DNA of 55,267 nucleotides, counting the filler, from Catajapyx aquilonaris (Eukaryota): the NCBI GenBank assembly GCA_000934665.2. It is 2 parts of 2 records of this genome, joined end to end, with 100 filler letters (N's around TTAATTAATTAA, not from the genome) between each part and the next. Parts side by side here need not be neighbours in the genome. Positions count along the whole stretch, not along the records: positions 27,670 to 55,267 come from JYFJ02005042.1; 1 more part is not named here. The stretch is one strand, 5' to 3'. The translations under genes and the position numbers were made by a program. How positions within the stretch are numbered: position 1 is the stretch's first letter; each line of letters begins with the position of its first letter. The notes under the pieces were generated by a model. It was given only the letters and a program-made list of their open reading frames with translations. It did no database searches and had not been told where the DNA came from. This document shows, piece after piece, positions 3,155-44,300 of the stretch.

Positions 3155-3997
3155 TTAGTTTTGCTGGCGCAGATATTCCTGCTGATGGTGTAGCTCATGC
3201 AGCTCCTGCCGAAGCTTCTGCAGCCCCTGGTGAAATTCCTGCAGGTGCTGCTGAAACTTCTGCTCCAGCTGCTTACGCTTCTGCTCCAGAAGCAGGAGAT
3301 GGCGTTGTTTTTCCCGCAGCTGTTCCTGCACCTGTCGAAGTCGATGCTGCCGTTCATTTGAGCTCTGGAGCTGCAGAGGGCACGTTTGGGCTGCCCTGTG
3401 AGAATGGCTCACTGGAATGAAAGGACTCAGGGTAAATCACATTCATCAGAAATTTGTTACCGGTACTTACTGGTACTCTCGGGGCAGGCAGTTTCATTCT
3501 CTGTCTCTACAGCGTGGATCCCCTCAGCCTTTATGAAATTGACGACTGATTTCTCGATATTCGTCATTGGAGGAAGGGGACGAAGAGCCATCTTGCGATT
3601 TGCCTGAAATGTGTCGACAGTGTTTATCACACGTACAATGTCGGTTTTTAAACCCATCTACCCATGTTCTTCTGGGCAACCACAATCACTTAATTCTAAA
3701 CTACGCTACGTCAGGACGACAACAGTAGTTCCACAGTACCTGCTTGAGGAGCTTCTTCCACTTCGCCTTCAGGTCCTCGATGCTCCTTCTCTTCATTCCA
3801 CTTCTGCTGGCAATCATTGAAGCAATAGCTTCCCATGCAGCGCTTCGCCCGCGGACGAAGTTGCCTCGCCCTCCAAAGGTGCCCTCGGGCTGCCCCCACC
3901 TTGCCGTCATCGCGTTTGCCAATTCCGTGGTCTCTTTCGTGGACCATTTTGTCCGCATAACTTTCCTTGGTTGCATACCTTTTGCGTGGTCGGCCAT
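3155..3997 (-). CDS. Myb/SANT-like (trihelix) DNA-binding protein with C-terminal coiled coil, 3 exons (3997-3740, 3603-3471, 3411-3155), 215 aa
   Basis: Exon 1 reads KWSTKETTELANAM...RSAAWEAIASMI...RRSIEDLKAKWKKL (Myb/SANT-like W-W-W spacing). Canonical GT-AG introns (CAG|GTACTG...TTTCAG; CCA|GTAAGT...TTCCAG) join three ORF-track pieces in frame (258+133+257=648 nt) to a Q/E/L-rich coiled coil and stop. Confidence 0.8.
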
Positions 3998-4364
3998 CTT
4001 TTGGTGAGCAGCTACGTTGGGGCGGCCTGTCGACAACTGACGTTACTCATAATAACTGCTTATCATAACTACTGGTACACTGAATCGCTGCGATCCCAAT
4101 AGTGTAGCAGTCGCCTATTTTGCTTTGATCCAGATATTGGCGCGCCATATATGAACAGTGAGTGTACATGAATGCTTTTACAGAGTGTATCTGAGTCACG
4201 GGTCAAGCGCGCGAGGGGTGGGGAAAAATCGTAGGTGCGTGGCGACAACCCCGGTCGGTTTTATAAAGGACAAATCAATCAGAAATAAGGTAGTAATCAA
4301 TATTTTATCACGTCGTGACATCACATCCTTTCTGTTCGAATTGAATGGCGGGTACCTTGGGTAG

Positions 4365-4930
4365 AACGGCACCATCACAGAGAAATACTGGTACCACACA
4401 TGTTCGCACGAAACGCCAGCGGTACGTCATCCAGCAGATCTGGTAACTTCTCCGGGACTCCTGCAGAAGTTTCTAGTACAGCCGACCATCCAAGCGTGGA
4501 GGCAGAAAATAGCGGCCCTAGGAGGTAGTCTCCGACCCAGAGGAAGATACCAGCCCATACGTTGATGGAGAAGCGGCGTTGATGGTGCGCAACAACATAG
4601 GCATGTGGATGTCATAGGCCCACACATGAGTTCCTGAAATTTTGGTCGTCACGACGTGTGAAACTTTGCCTCATCTGACAGCAGCAACCGTTCGACGAAG
4701 CTTGGTTCCACCTCGCATCGTTGCAGATACCAGCGAGTGAACTCCACCCGCGGAGCATAGTCCGTAGGAAGAAGCTCGTGCACCTTTTGCACATGGTACG
4801 GGTACACCCCTTCGTCATGGATGATCCTCCACACACTGGAATGACTGCTGTGCACTCTGCGAGCGACTTCACGGGTGCTGATCGATGGGTACATGGCTGC
4901 CATGTGCAGAACATCTTCCTCCATTGCCAT
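4365..4930 (-). pseudogene. Tc1/mariner (Tc3/DD37D-like) transposase, frameshifted
   Basis: PSISTREVARRV..SVWRIIHDEGVYPYHVQKVHEL...LLSDEAKF, then in shifted frames PHAYVVAHHQRRFSINVWAGI, GDYLLGP and MWYQ..DGA. Confidence 0.85.
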
Positions 4931-5347
4931 GGTACATGTGGTACGAAGAGCACCTGTAATGATGTGCGATATATTAGAGTACAGTACTGTACACTAATGT
5001 ACACGGAAGATTCCCATAAGGATGTAATAGTTCACGGTCGATGATGTACGTAATGCTTATTATTATAATAGCTGCTAACAGATCAGCAGCGACGCTCTTT
5101 CGGTGTGTGCTCTGGCCAACGGCCAACCCATGGGCCAACCCCAGTAGTCGGGACCCAATATGGCTGCAGTCTTTATGATATAACATGTGAAAGTGTCACT
5201 GGCGACGATGAGATGTAGCATCGTTCATATTTTCAGTGGTGGTCCATTGCAGCTAACTTTAGCCTTGCACTTGAGCATATATGTGCATGGCATTGCAACT
5301 GTGGTGCACAAGGTATTGACATTAGTCGCCGGCGATGTCTTTTCGAG

Positions 5348-5650
5348 CATCAGGTCCAGGTCCGAACACCGAAGGACGGGCACGTCACTGGCCAGCTTCC
5401 AGCTTGAAGTACGACCATCAGGTCCAGATCCGGACACCGAAGGGCAGGTGCGTCGCTGACCAGGTTCCAGCTTGAAGTACGACCATCAGGTCCAGGTCCG
5501 GACACCGAAGGACAGGTGCGTCGCTCGCTCGACCCAGCTTCCAGCTTGAAGGACCGAAGGACAGGTCGTGCGTCACCAGTGCGTCACTGGCCAGCTTCCA
5601 GCATGAAGTACGACCATCAGGTCCAGGTCCGGACACCGAAGGACAGGTGC
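5348..5650. repeat. 68-bp GC-rich tandem repeat, about 4.5 copies
   Basis: CATCAGGTCCAGGTCCGGACACCGAAGGACAGG...CCAGCTTCCAGCTTGAAGTACGAC starts at 5348, 5416, 5484 and 5615, with one rearranged partial unit. Confidence 0.9.
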
Positions 5651-8600
5651 GGAGCAGCACCGCGCCTAACGACAGCACCAGTGTTAAGGCCGGACGACGA
5701 GAGGCAGCCATCACCGGAACAGCTAGGTGACGTGTGCGACGACTATACGACGAAGTTGGATGACGAAGAGGTCCACAACATGCGGACCTCGACGGACAGC
5801 AGTGGGCAGAACATGGTGGTGGTGCCCAGGCGGGAAGTGTTGAAGCAGATCGTCGTTACAGTTGTCGGCGGGTAGTCAGGTGGGAGTTCGACGAAGAGAG
5901 ACCGTCAAGTGGAGCACGTGCACAGGTATTGCCCGGTTGGCCATGTGTTATGTTGCCTCTTTCAGAAAGTGTAGGCCTAATATTATGAACAAATGGCAGT
6001 AGAACACGTCTGGTATATAGCATATTTGAATTTTAATTATTTTAAACATGTTTTATGATGCTCATTTTATATTTAATGTCATGTTGCATGCATACTTGTA
6101 AATGCAATGCACTGTGCCTCCATATGAAATCATGCTAGAGGCAACCAATAATACACGTAATAATACAGTAATAGGTATATGCAATCATAGACTTTAGAGA
6201 ACACTATGCAACTCTACGTACAGTAAATAATAAGTAGCCTATTCGGTAATCTACGGGTCCTTGATATGAAAAATAAAAATAAAAATTTATTGCACTTTGC
6301 AATTATCTCCCGCTGTGTTCGTGAAAGTTGAAAATGGCACAATTTAAATACAAATAAAAATTATCACAGGTTCCTGTAGCAAGCTGTGATACTTTGACAC
6401 TTTAAAAAAACTTCAAATTACCAACATTCTTGCTGCTACACTACATCTCAGCTCCGGCTTCTTTTACAGTTCGAGCTTTAGACTGTTCACTGTTCAGTAA
6501 TCACTATTAACCACCTGTGCACAAAAAATCTTGAGGTAGTACGCAAAACAGGTATCCTACTTGTAGGATATTGTTATTCAAGTCATACTCTGTGTGTAAC
6601 TACAAAAGCCTGATTGAAAGATATGGTGGATGCACATGGCACAATAATTTTTAGAATACATTCTATGGCAACCGAATTTGATACTTTCAGTTTGAGACCC
6701 GTGCAGTACGTTTATTTATTTGGGTGAAATGCCTGAATTTTTGTTTCACATCAAGAATATTAAAGTACCAGCCTTATACCATTATATTCTAAAAACACTC
6801 AGTTTACTCTTATCATTATAAATGGCTCATAATGCATGCAATTTGGAAGGTTGTAAGCCTGACTTGTTATTAATTACTCATGCCATTTCTCAAGTTCTTG
6901 CTCGAGATGTAAATGTCGTTGACTATACCGGACCAAAATTATCTATTGTTTTAAATGGTATGTATGATTCACTCTACTGAGTTAACTCTGTGCACACTTG
7001 AGTCTCCCTGCTCTTTTCGTCACATTCGGTCGTCATAAGCAGAGTTTCAGAACTGATTATCCTCTCTAACGGCGCGGAACTAGAATCCCAGCAGACCAAT
7101 GGCTCCACTTTTCTGATGCTCAAGCAGGGCTCAGCTGTGTCCGCAGTCGAGACAAAGCTTTACATCGGGGATTTGTTATATGCCATTGGTTGGTAAAAAG
7201 GGGAAGAAAAAACACAAGGAGGGAGCCAGGCGGGAGAAACAAAGGATGGGGTGTCGACATAGGGCGACGTGTAGCGGAGGCAACTGAAGACCAGGAGTTA
7301 GTCTACAAATTCTAAATGAATAGATGTCAACTCCAGTATTTCTGATAGTTCTACTCAGTCGGGTTATAAGTTATTTAAATTTAAATACAGTTTGCTGGAT
7401 CGGTTTAAATATTCTTATCTGCACATAAGGGTTGGTAAGTGATGTGAGATATGTCATAGAGAGATGCAAGGCATGTCTGTCACTTGAGGAACATGAGAGC
7501 ATTGCTCTCCATTCTACTCTGGTGGGATTTGATTGATCGCTTCCAAGGGAATTTGGTAATGAATCTGTTATGTATCATACCCACCGACTACCACGCTTCT
7601 GGCCGCATGAACACTCTGTGACCTCCAAATGTCAAACTTTTGCAGTGGAGAATATTTCACACTGGTGACGGGGAGAGGGAAGGTGAGGGAGAGATTATAT
7701 AACGAAACTCTAGCATCACGATTTGTCTCACACTCATGAAGGGAAAAAATATTTTCTCCATAATTTGAGTTCATACAACCTTCCCTATCGTAAAACAAAC
7801 GCTACAGTTTTTTCCCCGCTGCGGGTTGTGTCTAACGAGAGTAATGATCGACGAGAAAGTAGTGGAGTATTCCAACTAGAGCTTTGTGCAAAACGAATCA
7901 ATTTCACGTTAGGATTGCATGTACAGTATCAGATCCACTTTCAGACTGTATTTTGGGCAGCAGTTTGAATAGGATGGAGTATGTCGGACTATTGATAACT
8001 ATTACGGAACAAAATGTGAGGTGTATACATATTGCCCAGTTGCCATGCCCGTCACCGCACTGTACAAATAATATTGTACCAAGAGTATGACTCATTCTAA
8101 GTACCCATTGGATGGACCCACACTGTGATGAATGCCAATTGGGAATTTGCAAGGGGGGGGGGGGGTTGTAGGGGGAACAAATCTCCCGCAAAATGTATTA
8201 TGGTAGGGTTGAGAGAGGGAGAGAGAACATTGTGTGCAGTCCCGTGGTTGCATGTGTGATGCACTGCTTGCCCTCTCGGACTCATTTGCATCCCTATAAT
8301 TATATCCGTGACAAACAGGTTTATTTGAAGGGGATTTTACTTCATTAAAAATACGCCTTCGCTGGCCAGCCCTGCAGTGTCCAGCGGTGCTAGTCTTTGT
8401 GGGGATGTTATTGATTTTTAAATACGCGAGAGAGCAGCACGAGTATAGTTACTATCTGCAAGTCACTTAAGAGAGGGTATATCATCACGCCTTATCAAGC
8501 TGTCTTCAAGTCTACGAAATTACAACCTTAGAAATACGAATTAAATTACTATACATAATCGATATTTGCAGCAGAAACATGTGACCAGACGGTATCGCAT

Positions 8601-13800: not shown

Positions 13801-15516
13801 AGAACCACATATTTGTATGAACATATATAAACACGCCGCATTATGTTGCTGGGGTGACGGGTAACTTGATAAAGTGAAGGAAATTAACACATAAATTAAT
13901 CGTGGCTCTTCCATCTGATGAATTTGTGGACCTAATCAATGCAAATGTTAATTATACGACATAGGTTATACGGAATGTTATGGGAAAAGGGATTGCAATG
14001 CGTAAACCACATGCCTTTGTTACCCCTCTGATAAAGCGTAGAGGTTTTGTAATCATTAACAGCCGCCAATTCATCTTTGTGTACCTTTGTGTACAATGCA
14101 TGATACACATTACACCCTCTCCCCAACTCTACACTCAAAATGTGGAAAAGCCTTTAGGCACTTCATTCGTTCAGTGCAGGTAGGATATAGGGTTACATGG
14201 GGAAATTTTTACTTCACCGCGTTATATATACTTCTCTTTTGACGTCATTGCATATGTGCCATTTTTAGTACGGCGTAATGGAGTATTTTTTAATTAATTG
14301 CCGTCACTTTTTAAAGCCAAATGTCATTTTTAAATATGAGTTGAGATCCAATCATGTTTCAATCTCCGAGAGCGATACCGGTACCCGTTATAGCCATCTG
14401 CACGTGCATGAACTTGGAGTGAGGGCTATATTCCCAGAGAGTTTCGTTCGCAACTCGCCTGCTTCATCTATTATTTTTGAACCATCGTTTGCACTTTGTA
14501 ATTAGCGAAGGCTTATTATTAGCCACCATTTTTACCACACAAATGAAGCCCGGATAAATGGAGAGTCTTTCCTTTCTGAATGGTGTCGCCATTCATATCG
14601 TTAGGAGATTAATTATGTCATGTACGCTGCAAACAAATTCTCGGCTGGCTGAATTACAAGAACTTTGTAAGTAGCACAATTAGCAGTGAAATCAAAGCGA
14701 TAATAAAATTAAGGTGCAGCCACCCTCATTTCCTCTACACCCTTTTCACTGGGTACCATAGAGGTTTTTGCTTATTTGTCGAGTGCCTGCGGAGGTTGCT
14801 ATATCGCAATCATCCCTTCCTCGCATATCATATCCTCCCTCTCTCAGAGGCACCCCTGCAGTTCTGGCTTTGTTACCCTTCAAGTTTGTTGAAACGGAAA
14901 ACTTTAATAATAATTGCAGTGCCCTCCTCGTTAGAGATTAAACGTCCACTAGCCCACAATGTAGCCTACTGTAGCATGAATTGTTAAAGCACTGCTTTAC
15001 ACATTCACCAGGTTGGAGAGATTGTATTTTCAAAGAATTCTGACATTTTCCACCGCTTACACATAATTAGTCCCTCTGCATAGCCTTTCCTCATTGCCTT
15101 AAATTTATAGACTGTATTGGTTTACCTCCGGGTGTATATAGATGGGTACACCGGTACGAAGTCAGATGAAATATGTAGAGCCCTTCACACGCGGTTTCTG
15201 CAGAAGTTCTGTAAGCATTATCTCCATGGCGACCAAGGAGGAGGGTTTTCAGTCCTCCAAGACATTTTAAAGAACAAGCTCTAAATTCTGGCTAATATCC
15301 AATCATCAGATTAGGTAAGAAGTATACTCGGCAAGTTATTATTAATTACCTCGGTGTTACTGTACACGATTGGGTTTTGCCAGAAATGAGGTCTCAACAT
15401 TTTAGAAAGATCGATGAAACAAGGCCATGAAATTTTCAGGTCAGAATTTGCCTTCAGGGTAGAAATGAGTCCTATCAAAAATTTTAAGGCTTTTAATTAG
15501 GCAAATGGACTTATTA

Positions 15517-35260: not shown

Positions 35261-35479
35261 TGATTGATTCTGCCTTGAAACGTGCGTTACAAACAAAATT
35301 CAGGAAGGGATAGGTGAGATGGGTAAAGAGTGATAGGTCGGGAGTAACGACCAGCCCCCAGGATATGCTCCCGGGGAACTGGCCCGGAGCATACGTGGGC
35401 GGTTGGTAAAATAGTATGGTGAGAACAATGCATGATGGTTACTAAAGAAGGTGAAACAGGATTGACGTACTAAACAGGT

Positions 35480-35826
35480 CTCGGAGCCGTTGATGATGTC
35501 CAGTACGTTCTCCTGATTTGGGGGCAGGCACGAAAGGAAGAGGAAAAGCCTTTCGAGGCCGGGGCTCCTCCGAACAATGTTTTTGAGGATGTCGGGCCTC
35601 CTCAACCTTATGGCGGACATGTCCAATTGGCACAGGGTGTGAGAAGAAACGGCATCTAGTAACCTGTCTGTATCATCGCGGCACATTGAACAGGTGATGT
35701 GCAATCGCTTCAGCTGGATCATCCTCGACAGCACGTCGGCCGCAGCCTCGGCGCCGGGTATTTACACGCTCTGCCACAGCGACGGGTCCTGGGTCACCAC
35801 CCTCCACCGTTTACACACCAGGGCCT
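35480..35826 (-). pseudogene. F-box/LRR (FBXL-like) gene fragment
   Basis: ALVCKRWRVVTQDPSLWQSV* (end of an F-box) followed in frame by LRR-like LKRLHI, LCQLDM, SPGLERLFL. Confidence 0.7.
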
Positions 35827-36225: not shown

Positions 36226-37980
36226 CTCGCACTTGATCTCGATAAGAGGTGTGACCTTGAGATGGGCAGTTTGAAGTCTTTGGAAAACAGTTTCCAGACG
36301 TTGGAGATGTTCAGAAACAGAAGAAGAGAAAATTGCTGTGTCTCACAATCACACGGATATAGCGCTGCTAGATAGATGGGACAAGTGTCTCAGTGTGAGT
36401 TGGTACCACTGCCTTGGAACTTCCTCCAAGTACTGCTATCTTCAACAAATTAAGATATTGTCGTCAGATTCGCACCTCCACCTCCTCCAAGTACTAGGGG
36501 AAGTCTGCCCGAAAGGCCCCTGGCAGTCCCCACCCCCCCTCTTACGTTCAAAGGCCAGACTCTGTACCAGGCCCGAGATACACAAAGAACCTTTAACATT
36601 CGCATTTCCCTGGTGCCCTATGTTCTCTCATTGGCAGACTGTCTCAGTTTCTTTTTCCCAGGTACTGTAGCAGTGACTCAGTTATCTTTCCCTCTAACGG
36701 GCTTTTTTTTTTTGGCAAATGATGCTGATGTGTGAAGATAGGTCCGAAGACCGAGGCAGGGTTCCACCTATAAATGGAAGTGAACCAAATGATAATGATG
36801 TGACATTTACTGTTATAGTTAATAGCTACATTTAATGCACGTCACATACCTCATGATGACATTTCTCACAGCACAAGCCCTGTCTCGCCACCAACTATCA
36901 CCGCACCATGCACTCAAACGAACATGAGGCCTCCGCCGAATAACTTACGTCAACAGCGCGAGACACATACACTGGATGCGATACGTCCACACATTGTTAA
37001 TCAAGTCACCCATACTGACACCCGTACAATGAACAATCAATGTCGGCCATCTTAAATGTGTAGGCTACTCTTTAAGTCACATGAGAGTCTAGTAAATATA
37101 ATAATAATTTAAAATAGGAAATAGGGTTAAGGGTGATTGTACAAGCAGCATTTTTATGAATGTGCAAGTAGCTAGATTACTTTACATAGGTACATTATGG
37201 TAACATTATGCTAATATTTGCAGGTCTGAAGCGAAATCTGTGTATTGGAGATGCTGACACAGGACACAGGACAATGTCATGAATTTTGACTTGACTGGTT
37301 TATGGAACAGAGTCAGCTGTAAAACGATAGGCTCACAGTTGTTATTCTATATTGCATGATATCCAGTCGAGTCATGGTAGGGGTTTCTCTACTCGTTAAG
37401 AGATCGACGACTTCCTTCGTAGCACAATGTCCTCGTTTCTTGCTTGCTCTTTGCAGTGGACGCAGTGGTTGTCGCTAATGTTTTGCTTTTCCTTTTGCTG
37501 ATTGGATCGTGCAGCGATACTCCTTGTTACTTTGTAAAAACCTTGTTGTAAATATCCGGCAATGCAGATGTTTAAGATAACTGTCGTATGCAATTTACAG
37601 TAAAATCTGATAACTGTATGAGACTAGAATTATTTTGCATAACGATACCTCTTTTGTGGTAGTCTATACCGAGAGACAGTTTATAAGTTGACAGTCTCAT
37701 CAGAGCTTCACCAACATTCCATACATTAGGGCCAAGTTCTTGGAGATGTGGTATGATTTGGTTTGGATGAGGTTCCACTATATACAAGGGTTGTGGTGCA
37801 GCCAAACTACGGTCCATATCCTCGATCTTGTTTGCGTAATGAAAATATTTCTGAAACAGGAACATGACAAGTTTTTCAGGCTGAGAACTAGTTAGGTTAT
37901 GAATGTGTCTGGGATCGGCCAGTTCCGGAAGGACGCAATCCATGTAAAATCGAGTCAGCTTGGGCTCCCTTTTCTTTTGC

Positions 37981-38920
37981 TCAAAACTCGTCGTCCCTCT
38001 CGATCCGCTCTATCCTGATCCCTTTTTCGGTCCACGCCGCAAATAAAGCGTAATTGCGACAAGTCATGTGCAATTGCCCTTGCCCCTGATAGCAATAAGG
38101 GTGAGTCTTGTTTAGGCCCGTTATTGTCTTTGTGGACTTGTTGATGGTCCAAACAGTGCATTTTACTGCCAGAATGGTCCAGTCCGGGGTTGCCAGTCCG
38201 ATGCCATGTCTCTGTTGGTGGCGAGACACTCACCCCGACAAGTCCACCCTGCTGGATGAGGTCGTCAGGTGATGCTCCTAGGTACGGGAGGCCAGGGTCA
38301 ATAAAGAGATACTCTTCAATAACAACACCTTCCTTCTTCTGGAGGGCTTCCTTAGCCTCCTTCTCCATAATTCTTCCGTACAACATGGCACTGTTGTCAA
38401 ATATGGAATATAACAATCCAGTCACCAAATTGTGGCAGCTAGTGGATGGCATTTGCCTGCACACTTGACCGAAGTTAGAGGCCGTCAGCTTTTTCTTCTC
38501 CTTTCCATCCACTCACTGCTGTCCCTCTGCACCACAGTCTCTCTGTCGATCCTAGTACGTTTCTCTTTAACATTTAAGCCTTCTAATATTTCGGCAACCT
38601 TCTTGTTATACACCGTAAAATCATGTGGACCCCAATATGAGGCATATGACGGATGTTACATCTGCAATCATATCAGGCTTTGCGCAATTCTCACCGTCGT
38701 CGGCTCCCGCCGCCAATCATGCCCTTGAAGAGGTCTTGCTGTTCATTTTTCTGACACGGCGTTTCCCCCGGTCAGCTGCTTTTTGGCACGATGTCCGACG
38801 CCTGAGTTCCATTTTTTTTGTGTGTGCTAACGCTGGGGCTCCTGTTGTACATCTCCTTGTGCAGCATGGTCAGCGTGTGATCAACTAAATGTAATTAACG
38901 CAAGAAGGTTGGTGTTATAG
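37981..38920 (-). pseudogene. YqaJ/lambda-exonuclease-like PD-(D/E)XK domain plus linker of a Kolobok-like transposon protein
   Basis: Q..SSEW..RRKKLTASNFGQVC...AMLYGRIME...PYLGASPDDLI...HPYCYQGQGQLHMT; upstream linker D.GENCAKPDM; frameshifted. Confidence 0.85.
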
Positions 38921-38922
38921 TG

Positions 38923-39378
38923 GTATGTGTCGTGGATGTCCAAGTCGTAGCCTCTCTTGTAGAATTCAATGTATCTAATCTCTTTTCCATCCCTACGAAT
39001 GAAGGAATCAGTGGGCCTCAGGTTCCAGTCGATGTACCTAACCCTTGTACATCCTATTGTTATAAGGCGTCAGAACGTATGCATCCGTGACCATATTCAG
39101 CATCTCATCCTGGAAGTTCCCCGTAGTCTGGCACATTACGTATGTCATGACGTCAAGAGCAGTCTGAGTGTGGGGGACATATCTTGGGGAGAGACCGCAG
39201 CAGAGTCACCACCCCACTACCCTCATCCTCGTGGGCTGCTTGCCCACGTGACATGTTTCGCACCTGGCCACTCTTCGAGCCTTTGCCGAAGGATCTGTGA
39301 GTCAGCCAGTGGATTGAAGTAGTATGGTACACCTACTTTGACAATGTTGGCCTTTAAGTTTACTTGCCTTAACCTATT
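38923..39378 (-). pseudogene. PIWI-clade Argonaute fragment (L1 linker + PAZ domain), frameshifted
   Basis: KVGVPYYFNPLADSQILRQRLEEWPG / HEDEG / LCCGLSPRYVPHTQTALDVM...VLTPYNNRMYK / VRYIDWNLRPTDSFIRRDGKEIRYIEFYKRGYDLDIHD. This parallels the Piwi/Aub/Ago3 consensus GRNYxDP..HRLExWPG..LCxDVSHK..TVLD..VLTxYNNxTY..IDW..P.STF...DG.EI.Y.EYYK..Y...I.D. Confidence 0.85.
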
Positions 39379-39394
39379 ACGTGTCACGGTCGCA

Positions 39395-39600
39395 TCGAAA
39401 GGTTCATAATAAGCCTTTCCGATTTGTTCGCCTACTGGAAGTGATGCTTCATGGGGATTCAAGTTCATGACGCGAATAGGTACTTCATTCACGGGATCGG
39501 ATGTCACTAGAGCTCTAGCTACTCCTAACCCGGCTGAGTTGCTTACTCCTTCGATCAATAGTTCCTGTCCTTGGAGATACTCGGGTTTGTGCCTGTGTAC
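39395..39600 (-). pseudogene. Gypsy pol protease-RT spacer fragment
   Basis: GLGVARALVTSDPVNEVPIRVMNLNPHEASLPVGEQIG. Confidence 0.7.
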
Positions 39601-40641
39601 AGTTGCATTGTAATCGACAAACTGGATCAGGTAATTTCCATGAGAATATAATTCCCAGTTTTCAAATTTATTGAAATCTTCACTTTTGACGAAGTCCTTC
39701 AGAGGATAGCCTTATTGGGCCTACTGTCTTTGCAGTATACGTATAATAATTATGCAGTATTCTGTGAAATTATCAAAATATAACTCCCACACGGGGAGAG
39801 TTCATTGTCAAATATTATCTCACACTGACGAATTACTATACATTTCACATAAATTTCAATGCCATGGATGCATTCACCCGGCACAAAATTTCTCCACGCT
39901 TACCTGTTCATTTCGATGATGGCTAGCAGGGGACATCTGATGTAATTGCGATACCTTCTGCTGCATCCTGGGAAACAGCGAAAACTTAGCGTCCTTTTTT
40001 GTCGGTGGTGTCGCAGCTTCGGTATCAGCTGGTTCAGTTGTTGTGGCGTCAGAGGATGCATGTCAGAGCGTCGATGCAGAGCCAGCAAATACGAGCGCAC
40101 CTTCGTATCTACGTCGCGTCGCACAGTGACCTAGATTCGTAAAATCCTGGCCAAAATGTTATTTATCAGCGTGGAAAAATCAAAATAACTTCTAGGGGGT
40201 TTACTAGTCGCTGAACACGAATTTGAAGTCAAAAATTGTCAAATTGATCGGTGTACACGTGCAGGATTGGACAAAATAATAGGTTCCCCCTGCGAAAAGG
40301 GACTGTAACTTCGAGTCAGCTGATGCAGTTGGTTCAGCAGTAGCAGTTTTGGATGCCATGTACTCTGCAAGGATTAAAATATAACTGTACAAGGTGCGCC
40401 AACTTTAATAATCATTTAAGTTCATCAATTGACGTATGCCATGCATTCCAAAAGTAGTTTTCCAGTTTAGACATGGAAAAGCCTAAATTTTGTGTGTAAA
40501 ATGAGATTCGTCGGAAATAAATTTTACACATTACTATGTTACATACGCCCAAGTTTTTCTTTTGAAGAGGTGAATATACTTATAACTGCCACCTGCCATG
40601 TGGCAGGTATACCAACTATATACAAAGACATTATTGCCTTA

Positions 40642-40871
40642 ACCGCATACGACCTCATATTGGTCCGCTTTTAGATTTATAACTCTTCATTATGTGCCTC
40701 TTGATATTAAATCAACACAGTTTATTGAAATTCCTCTCGCCAGCACTCGACGGTGCCGCCTAGTGGCGCCGCGTAGTGGTCGGCAGCCAAACACGTTGAC
40801 TAAACAACTGGCCAAAAAGTGGCGACGCTTGGAAATCGTTTTTTCCACTCTTCCTAGTATTAAGCTCTTTG
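40642..40871 (-). mobile_element. Solo end of a P-like element (same family as 50490-51400)
   Basis: Near-identical to 51171-51400; ends in TTTTCCACTCTTCCTAGTATTAAGCTCTTTG. Confidence 0.85.
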
Positions 40872-41589: not shown

Positions 41590-42081
41590 TGGTCGCGGAA
41601 ACCCTTGAGGAGGATACGGGAAAGCTTTGATTCTTGAGACCATCGTATTCACATCATCTTCCAGATCGGTGAGGAAGCGGACAATACAGTCGGCCCCTCC
41701 ACACGTGTTGAATTTTACAACGGTTGTGTCCGGACCAATTATCACATATGCAAAGCCACAGGGGATATGTTTTAGAGAGTTGTCCTCCTCCATAATGCAC
41801 TCAAAGTCTGCGTATACTACGTAAGGTCGGCTCAACGTTTTCTTAATATTCCTAAAATGCACATGAATATTCTCCCCTTCCGGCATCTTAACAGTTTGGA
41901 CTTTCCCTCCTGGAATGGTGAACACTGCCCCATGCGCATGCAACCGTTCCTCCTTTGTAAATCTGCCGGTGCAGAATTTACAGAAATATTGCTTAGATAT
42001 CCCCTTCCCAACACCACACCGCAGTAAGGCACTTACATTAGTTATGGCAACATAGTGGCGCTTCTCCCCCTGGTGCAGCAA
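41590..42081 (-). pseudogene. Maverick/Polinton protein-primed DNA polymerase B, N-terminal fragment
   Basis: HYVAITNVSALL...FCKFC..RF...LHAH...VKMP...F.N.KK...PYVVYADFEC...HIPCGFAY (Exo I region). Confidence 0.85.
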
Positions 42082-42109
42082 GAGGAGGTCTCCCGAAACC
42101 TGTTGCCAC

Positions 42110-42190
42110 GTCGGCCCACTTGGTACACACTTTCGGCAGGACCAGAAGTCTCTCGTTCAAGTTGAGGTATGAGAAAATGTGCTCCTGACA
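42110..42190 (-). pseudogene. F-box motif fragment
   Basis: EHIFSYLNLNERLLVLPKVCTKWADVA. Confidence 0.75.
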
Positions 42191-42269
42191 GTCTTGTGCT
42201 AGAATACCGTTGAATAGGTCTTCCGTCGTGGTCGCAGGTAACTGTAGCGGTACGATTGGGGCAGCCATT

Positions 42270-43562
42270 CTTAGATGGGGATACTACTCTATGGCTGTCA
42301 AATTTCAAGACGCAATACTCATTTCCTGCCTGTTCGAACAAATCATTGAACTTGTCGGTCCAATCCTTCAGTCGACAAGCATGAGGGGCATGCAGCTTCT
42401 TCCATTCCTCCCGAGTCAATGTGAATATAAATTTGAGCTGTATTCCCAGTCTCTTGGTTCGTTCGGTAGGAACAGCTTCCTTCAAACTTGTGAGGGTAGG
42501 TCTCTTACGAGTCGTTTTGATGGGCGTGGAAACAACAATATCAACGTCTTCGTCAGCAGTGACGTCACTCGCGCTAGGGGATGGTGACTCGGGCTTCTTC
42601 TGTTGCAACGCCACAACTCCAGTAACACTGTTGTAATGGTTTCCAGTGTAGAAAAGCCTTATGGTCTGAGTAGGGGCAATGGTGTGTACTGCACCGTTGA
42701 AGTGGTTTACTTCCATGGCAGCGGCAAGAACCTCTGCTGCCGCGGCTATGTATTCGGCGCCGCCCCATTTGTTTTCGCAGGCGATATCGGCCATGTACGC
42801 TGCAATTTGGACGTCTTCATCAGGCGACATATCATCGTGACGCAGGTCTCCATACTTGCATGCATGGTCGTCTTCTTTTGCGGCCAGTATTTCACTCTTC
42901 ATGGTGTCCGTATAGCGTTCTAGGTTCTCCCATACGCGATCAGTCACCTGGTTGCGAATTGCCTTACTGAATTCGCAGTTGTTAGGGAACCTAGCTTCGT
43001 CTCCGTAAACCTGATGTGCCAGGGCATGAAAGAGGCACCCACCGTCGCTCGGGACTATCACCTGTGTGATAAGTCGGTGAGCGATGGGCAATATGAGAGT
43101 TGACCCTTCGTCAGCTGTCCACACTTTCATTTTCAAATCATCACGCAGGTGCACGTCCAGCAGTGGTTTTGTTACTAGGGACACCTTCGTCAACGGAGAC
43201 CCGCCGTCAGGTATGCTTTGAAGTTCAGCAGCACCGCTGATACTACGCTGCCTTTTCTCCTGACGCTGCTGAATGTGGTTATTGTCATCGTGAGAGTCAC
43301 TTGTGACATCGTGTTGTGGAACATCGTCTTGTTCGACGTTCAATGTGAGATGATCCTCTACAAGATGGTCGGTAGGGTTGTCATGTTCAACATCACCTTG
43401 TAGAAGGTCTTGTTGCACGTGAACCTGCAGAGGCTCTTCCCGCACAACATCTGCTTGCTTTTCCTCGCCGTACAGTATGGCTTTCTCTGCAATCTGTCTC
43501 TCCAACTCACTCGCGAAGACGTCCTTCTTGTACCAGAATTGATTATAACAATAGCGCGACAC
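42270..43562 (-). pseudogene. OTU-like cysteine protease domain followed by a NOF-FB-like (MULE) segment
   Basis: VPSDGGCLFHALAHQVYG...WGG.E.I.AA...LFYTGNHYNSV (D/C/H catalytic residues present); then FTLTREEWKKL...DWTDKFN...CVLKF, resembling NOF-type Mutator proteins. Confidence 0.75.
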
Positions 43563-43769
43563 CTAAGTGAGCTTGTCACCCATTTACAGCCCACTAGCAG
43601 AGTTCTGGCGAGACTCATCCAGAAGGAGTTTTCACCACCCCTCACCTGCTTACAGTGTTCATCGGTAGGTACCACTCCGCCTGTCACCTCAATAACACCC
43701 GTCACTATAGAAGGGATACCGAAACCTGCATATTTAGTTGGGGGTCCAGGATTGCTCTCTACCCCAGCT

Positions 43770-44300
43770 GTGATAACAACAGCTGCTGCACAACGCGGTT
43801 GGTATGACCTCTTCAGGGAAAAGTTCACCCTCTTACCCCCAATCATCTTCGCAACCTTGAAGTTAAAGTGTTCTACTGCATTGTTGTCGTAGTCACAGAG
43901 GAGACTCCTGCTGGGCTGCTGTGGTCCATTAGAGTGTCAATTAAGTCCATTAGTGATGTGTAGATCGAACACTCCTTCAGCTCGGGCACCCAGTTTTTTT
44001 CTCCGTCCTTTGGACCAGGGCAGAAATTGCCCGTTTCCGCACACTTCAAGTGCTGACCAAATACATGGCTAGGGCCATTTAGTAGGTCAAGCCTCAGGGC
44101 CTGGATGTTTTGATACATGGGTCCTGGTGCATCTTTTCGATGTTTTATGGCCCCAGTCACAGCTCGTCGGAGACGCAAAATCTTTCCGCCCACGACCTGT
44201 CGGAGACGCAGAGGTCCCAATTTAGTCTTGCCAACAAGGTCTCTCAGTTTGGTACATTAATTTCGTAGCAGGTGGTTTCTGCATTCAATGATCTCGACTG
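43770..44300 (-). pseudogene. Kolobok-like ('Mutator-like') transposase fragment
   Basis: ECRNHLLRN; LDLLNGPSHVFGQH.KC; NNAVEHFNFKVAKMIGGKRVNFSLKRSYQPRCAAAVV. Confidence 0.75.

Follow-up and report, generated by a model that had tools for sequence, protein, structure and literature searches.

Pieces of piRNA-pathway genes lodged in DNA that feeds the piRNA pathway are a footprint of the arms race between hosts and transposons, so far documented only for the telomeric elements of drosophilids. Capture by telomeric LINE elements in drosophilids was reportedly described by Ellison et al. in 2020. The locus described here comes from another genome of arthropod type, where it lies in a transposon graveyard, and raises the question of how a fragment of a PIWI-family coding sequence came to be there and whether it acts on the pathway from which it derives. 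It belongs to a window of 55,267 nucleotides of Catajapyx aquilonaris (assembly GCA_000934665.2), the window being the whole stretch of DNA that was analysed, with two parts joined by 100 filler letters; the fragment is in the part that comes from JYFJ02005042.1. A sequence-only reading of this window had noticed the fragment and offered two explanations, either piRNAs made at the locus against a piwi gene, as a feedback control of the pathway, or a divergent piwi carried by a transposon. Based on the analyses below, the fragment is probably neither of these, and is best explained as a dead, truncated, single-copy and intron-free pseudogene fragment of the PIWI clade, a passenger in a graveyard of co-oriented transposon remnants.

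Homology to the end of linker 1 (L1) and to the PAZ domain of PIWI-clade proteins was found on the minus strand from about 39372 down to 38926, in three colinear frame pieces that together occupy some 450 bases, which confirms to within a few bases the position (38923 to 39378) at which the fragment had been noticed. Its parts are the following.

39262 to 39372, minus strand: L1 piece, reading ...VKVGVPYYFNP...RLEEWPG; last part of a 162-aa open reading frame (ORF) at 39226 to 39711.
39203 to 39261, minus strand: disrupted stretch between the L1 piece and piece B; 59 bases in place of the 14 residues expected from the profile; in-frame stops and a change of frame.
39044 to 39202, minus strand: piece B, in a second reading frame, running from the last part of L1 into the beginning of PAZ, reading ...TALDVM...VLTPYNNRMYK; profile positions 312 to 363, residues 214 to 256 of PIWIL2 (7yfy_A).
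39044 to 39046, minus strand: frameshift between pieces B and C, placed by the alignment coordinates and the sequence; the codons overlap by 2 bases.
38926 to 39045, minus strand: piece C, central PAZ, reading RVRYIDW...DLDIHDT; profile positions 363 to 402, residues 256 to 293 of PIWIL2 (7yfy_A).

From high to low coordinates, the minus strand carries the 162-aa frame (39711 to 39226), the C-terminal end of which reads ...VKVGVPYYFNPLADSQILRQRLEEWPG, then the 59-base broken stretch (39261 to 39203), piece B and piece C, the latter with the third-frame peptide RVRYIDWNLRPTDSFIRRDGKEIRYIEFYKRGYDLDIHDT (39045 to 38926).

Several searches converge on this assignment at unequal strength along the fragment. 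Piece C matches the Pfam PAZ family with an E-value of 1.7e-6 and 28.5 bits, 0.3 bits below the curated cut-off of 28.8, and pieces L1 and B have no match in Pfam, ArgoL1 included. Of the two profiles that had been proposed as a check, PAZ was thus recovered just under its cut-off and ArgoL1 was not, the L1 region being supported by our own profile. This profile, built from 103 PIWI proteins of at least 700 aa, was run on the six-frame translation of the window (2373 pieces) and detected piece C (E 8.9e-9) and piece B (E 1.1e-8). The L1 piece, matched at 39351 to 39262 over profile positions 269 to 297, has an E-value of about 1 when taken alone; it is colinear upstream of B and C, and none of 2000 composition-preserving shuffles attained its 7.4 bits (shuffle maximum 4.2 bits). 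The PIWI set was enlarged by 120 further proteins gathered with an Ixodes protein as query, and in tblastn analyses 127 of 128 PIWI proteins matched the fragment site on the same strand and in colinear pieces, with 30 to 49% identity over piece B. These alignments extend the L1 homology to 39372 (e.g., P0054, with 38% of 37 aa) or to 39387.

Comparison with solved structures points to the same clade. Using phmmer against the PDB, the best match of piece C was 3o7x_A, the PAZ domain of PIWIL2 (E 4.4e-7), and piece B matched residues 214 to 256 of 7yfy_A (E 0.004). Because the 7yfy_A alignments of the two pieces meet at residue 256, B abuts C exactly in the protein, with frames that differ in the DNA. 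At E-values up to 1, PIWI-clade chains made up 16 of the 22 PDB matches of piece C and 14 of the 15 matches of piece B, including PIWIL2, PIWIL1, sponge Piwi-A, Siwi and fly Piwi, and no eukaryotic AGO1-4 chain occurred among the matches of either piece. The fragment is closer to the PIWI clade than to the AGO clade, as had been proposed from the motifs. A full HMMER pass with piece C over 1.84 billion representative proteins returned eight matches at E up to 1e-3. Seven of them are PIWI-type and bear a PAZ domain; they comprise a PAZ protein of Ixodes, two short fragments of PAZ, and PIWIL4-type proteins from frog, whale, tree-shrew and cotton-rat. The best library identity to piece C was 51% over 41 aa, and the eighth match is a false positive caused by an RTX-repeat protein. 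For piece B, a word-indexed protein search among longer proteins yielded no candidate with three shared 5-residue words. Like PIWIL2/MILI (7yfy, 3o7x), PIWIL1, Siwi (5guh) and Drosophila Piwi (6kr6), the fragment shows the 'WPG' motif of L1 and the 'LT.YNN..Y..D..W' motif of PAZ in colinear order. Unlike these solved PIWI-clade Argonautes, it has a broken frame and is devoid of the N, MID and PIWI domains.

What is left of the gene amounts to about 136 codons, which encode the end of L1 and the first two thirds of PAZ, to be compared with the about 850 to 950 residues of full PIWI-clade Argonautes. A working gene would keep its frame open and encode N and MID domains as well as an RNase H-like PIWI domain; here, the frame is broken at least twice, and one of these breaks is the frameshift previously read at 39042 to 39044, which is real and lies at 39044 to 39046. 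Neither tblastn nor our own profile, applied to both strands, detected an N, MID or PIWI domain in the 55-kb window, the remaining tblastn matches having E-values above 0.1 and the remaining profile matches none below 1, and no second stretch resembling the fragment was found within the window. The three pieces cover profile positions 267 to 402 within 447 bases and leave no intron-sized gap, which suggests an origin from a spliced message, although a duplicate made at the DNA level would be indistinguishable from an intron-free copy if it consisted of one large exon. Two other candidates were dismissed as chance matches. One, at 43575 to 43814 on the plus strand, was suggested by tblastn as a second PIWI piece (E 0.12 to 0.65) and has no profile support; the other, at 14467 to 14592 on the minus strand, reads ...FRKERLSIYPGFICVVKMV and resembles the 'LevWPGY' block of the profile with an E-value of about 1, with nothing PIWI-like around it.

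The fragment is strongly diverged. Its identity to 39 reference PIWI proteins ranges from 27 to 41% over 121 aligned columns, as compared with a median of 49% and a minimum of 36% within the panel itself. In a tree of 40 rows, it was placed beside mayfly Ago3 (SH-aLRT 81) and within the insect Ago3 group (SH-aLRT 91), at the end of a branch of 1.55 (median 0.27). The panel has no arthropod Piwi/Aub, and joining the fragment to the PIWIL4 rows was not rejected by an AU test (p 0.252), so that a placement with Ago3 rather than with Piwi/Aub is tentative. The long branch could stem from a source paralogue that evolved fast and not from decay. If identity dropped to about 36% from the 49% that is typical, this would correspond to roughly 0.3 amino-acid changes per site, a value that seems to agree with the 12 to 13% divergence of the flanking repeats from their relatives; a surviving parent gene would therefore be expected near or below 80% DNA identity.

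The borders of the fragment are informative as to both its copy number and its surroundings, which comprise the following elements.

39376 to 39922, minus strand: upstream piece of a multi-copy repeat, the ORF of which continues in frame into the L1 piece; relatives at about 87% identity and 4 to 5 times the depth.
38513 to 38875, no strand assigned: downstream repeat; another copy, about 88% identical, covers 38669 to 38850, and a further contig departs from the window at 38875.
37958 to 38512, minus strand: ORF of a YqaJ-like nuclease, a transposon remnant (Pfam PF09588, E 5.7e-7).

Contigs of X1, X2 and X3 (three of four DNA runs, all from one sample) and of X5 (kind not stated) were aligned to positions 37700 to 40699 at 80% likeness. 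In each of the first three sets, a single contig of 1099 bases corresponds to 38824 to 39922; it has no indel, is identical to the window in X1 and X2, and differs from it at 2 positions in X3, so that both junctions are bridged. No second contig was found on 38900 to 39394 at 80% identity or more in X1, X2 or X3; a multi-copy element of the TART-nxf2 type would be expected to differ from this pattern of one contig per run. The mis-assembly of an intact host piwi gene, which had been named as a possible source of error, is thereby disfavoured, the support from the three sets being non-independent as they come from one sample. Single copy and correct assembly are supported but not proven, because X1 to X3 represent one sample, perhaps the very one that was assembled, and because contigs can miss copies. 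The two differences of X3, with a T for the C of the window at 39053 and a T for the A at 39155, both fall inside the PIWI fragment, where X1 and X2 are identical to the window; they may correspond to allelic variation or to error.

On the right side of the fragment, other contigs with about 87% identity and 4 to 5 times the neighbouring depth (depths 124 to 153) lie on 39406 to 39585; their loose end keeps its likeness to about 39379, and the contigs then continue as sequence that fits nothing in the aligned stretch. On the left side, the second copy of the downstream repeat lies on 38669 to 38850 and another contig departs at 38875. The unique segment left between these repeats (about 38876 to 39375) coincides with the PIWI homology. 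The sequence-only reading had described the fragment as wedged between a Gypsy pol piece and a Kolobok/YqaJ piece in the same orientation. The YqaJ side was recovered, in that orientation, whereas the Gypsy assignment of the upstream side was not: the ORF of the upstream repeat matched nothing in Pfam or, by phmmer, in the PDB at E-values up to 10, the word-indexed search with the 162-aa ORF gave 807 candidates and none at E up to 1e-3, and the ESM Atlas returned no named family (best scores 0.94 for unnamed and 0.88 for named entries). A single-sequence AlphaFold model of this ORF was too poor to use (pLDDT 43). This ORF may resemble a protease-like region of a retroelement. Several minor features were observed on the same side. 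One contig per run (depth 26 to 36) joins 39622 to 39751 and skips 128 bases, which points to another copy of the upstream repeat that lacks them. Positions 40600 to 40699 belong to a very high-copy repeat, with a summed contig depth of 3400 to 7000 as compared with about 30 to 40 nearby, and the contigs of X5 match the aligned stretch only at 40630 to 40699, within this repeat.

Beyond its immediate neighbours, the fragment shares its orientation with all the recognisable transposon pieces. Among 399 of the 401 stop-to-stop ORFs of at least 55 aa, those with a Pfam hit (E up to 1e-3) were all on the minus strand (10 of 10), as compared with 197 of 399 ORFs overall (binomial p about 0.0009, the ten hits being partly dependent since OTU, F-box and Mutator are adjacent). 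The ten families are Myb_DNA-bind_5, Tc3 HTH, DDE_3, DDE_1, an F-box-type LRR, YqaJ, PAZ, F-box, OTU and Mutator; no EnSpm/CACTA transposase domain was found among the Pfam hits of the window, where EnSpm pieces had been reported to accompany the fragment. Such a gene-free array of co-oriented remnants has the layout of a one-strand piRNA source, and may be one. It is in this respect like flamenco-like one-strand piRNA clusters (PMC10643416); unlike these clusters, its recognisable pieces are mostly domains of DNA transposons (DDE_1, DDE_3, Tc3 HTH, Mutator, YqaJ) and not endogenous retroviruses.

The history that we favour would begin with a spliced PIWI-family message, or part of it, copied into the array by retro-copying or by transposon-mediated capture. 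The copy would then have decayed and been trimmed on both sides by later insertions and deletions, with repeat pieces now abutting it, and would persist without function among the minus-strand transposon remains. Neither a poly(A) tract nor a target-site duplication was found at the fragment; both of its ends are truncated, and therefore a tail or a target-site duplication is not to be expected. If the array acted as a one-strand piRNA source with plus-strand transcription, the fragment would give rise to small RNAs antisense to PIWI-like sequence, which would most likely have no target because the fragment has drifted so far.

The most attractive of the rival explanations is a relic of gene capture, in which a mobile element took a piece of a host PIWI message and one dead copy of the chimera was kept. 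The PIWI piece abuts a co-oriented, multi-copy repeat, a single 162-aa ORF runs in frame over the junction, an intron-sized gap is absent, and transposons are documented to have captured pieces of piwi and aub repeatedly (PMC13534243). Nevertheless, the in-frame junction had one chance in three of arising by accident, the neighbouring repeat has no class assignment from Pfam, the PDB, the ESM Atlas or the word search, and its abundant contigs depart near 39376 to 39406, with the PIWI piece present on no second contig. A transposon-borne piwi predicts many copies and one was seen at 80% identity or more, so this option of the earlier reading finds no support, and a capture relic is considered unlikely. 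The same absence of a poly(A) tract and of a target-site duplication would suit a remnant left in place by a former PIWI paralogue, or a DNA-level segmental duplicate restricted to one large exon, rather than the copy of a spliced message. A run of 136 codons without an intron would, however, be long for an exon of an arthropod PIWI gene, both ends of the fragment are repeat boundaries and not splice-like, and other PIWI exon-like pieces are absent from both strands of the 55-kb window. An in-place origin is accordingly held to be improbable. That the resemblance is due to chance, or that an intact host piwi gene was wrongly assembled here, could be argued from a PAZ score that falls short of the Pfam cut-off and from the missing ArgoL1 match; this reading is disfavoured and has next to no probability, given two exactly colinear pieces with E-values of about 1e-8 each against the PIWI profile, a site matched by nearly all the PIWI proteins searched, and contigs of three runs that repeat the sequence across both junctions.

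Active feedback, in which piRNAs of the array antisense to the fragment would tune a PIWI-family message, is favoured by the shared orientation of the fragment and the transposon pieces, and by antisense pseudogenes inside piRNA clusters that were proposed to regulate their parent genes (PMC4105748). Such control requires a near-identical piwi target, and none was found at 80% identity or more in the three DNA contig sets; the fragment is frameshifted and strongly diverged, as its low protein identity to the 39 PIWI proteins indicates. The published comparisons also argue against it: pseudogenes of primate piRNA clusters showed no signal of selection and only weakly conserved targeting (PMC6461890), and drosophilid captured fragments at about 79 to 82% identity left almost no piRNAs on the host gene, an identity too low for targeting (PMC13534243). 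The feedback option therefore has no support from these data and appears very unlikely. A bolder variant, in which the array would be a working one-strand piRNA source whose fragment-derived RNAs are antisense to a fast-evolving host PIWI paralogue, or in which a transposon once used the fragment in this way and the host archived it, is highly improbable; if true, the silencing pathway would throttle one of its own effectors.

The preferred reading, a dead pseudogene fragment, can be set beside two kinds of known cases. In drosophilids, telomeric LINE elements have captured fragments of piwi, aub and nxf2, captures that serve to blunt silencing (PMC13534243). The present fragment is like these captures in being a short, intron-free PIWI-family coding piece, co-oriented beside a transposon in DNA expected to feed the piRNA pathway. 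It differs in that the drosophilid pieces belong to the consensus of the element, are multi-copy, match the host gene at about 90% identity and are associated with piRNAs on that gene, whereas the present piece was seen once at a threshold of 80% identity and the other copies of the neighbouring repeat are without it. The second likeness is with primate antisense processed pseudogenes, host-gene pseudogenes in a candidate one-strand source and in an antisense-yielding orientation, although the primate cases are near-complete processed pseudogenes with known parents and measured piRNAs (PMC4105748, PMC6461890). The present sequence is an internal fragment of 450 bases from a genome of arthropod type, and it derives from the very family that acts as the piRNA effector. 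Published precedents exist both for antisense pseudogenes within piRNA clusters (PMC4105748) and for the capture of PIWI-gene fragments into transposon DNA that feeds the piRNA pathway (PMC13534243). Literature searches for cluster-borne pseudogenes of piwi or Ago3, a transposon-encoded piwi or a piwi retrocopy found none, an argonaute pseudogene being mentioned for C. elegans; the piwi-carrying EnSpm/CACTA elements of a cockroach mentioned in the sequence-only reading found no match among the titles and abstract openings listed.

The occurrence of a PIWI fragment in the transposon graveyard of this genome indicates that such pieces arise outside drosophilids too, and the locus offers a concrete place for small-RNA testing. 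Because the fragment is old, broken and solitary, the result is mainly a point of annotation, a PIWI pseudogene fragment and not a regulator, and its importance is modest unless small-RNA data reveal targeting.

Other parts of the array deserve a brief mention. The longest open frame of the window (42041 to 43562, minus strand, 506 aa) encodes a cysteine-protease domain of the OTU type (E 2.6e-7). An overlapping frame that follows it carries an F-box (42041-23 to 42283, E 5.1e-5), the tail of a Mutator-like transposase precedes it (43876 to 44256, E 5.2e-4), and these three may represent one Mutator-type element that carries OTU and F-box parts. At 35303 to 35761, on the minus strand and thus in the orientation of the other pieces, a weak match to an F-box-associated LRR family (PF24758, E 8.9e-4) might correspond to a second host-gene-like or F-box-related piece.
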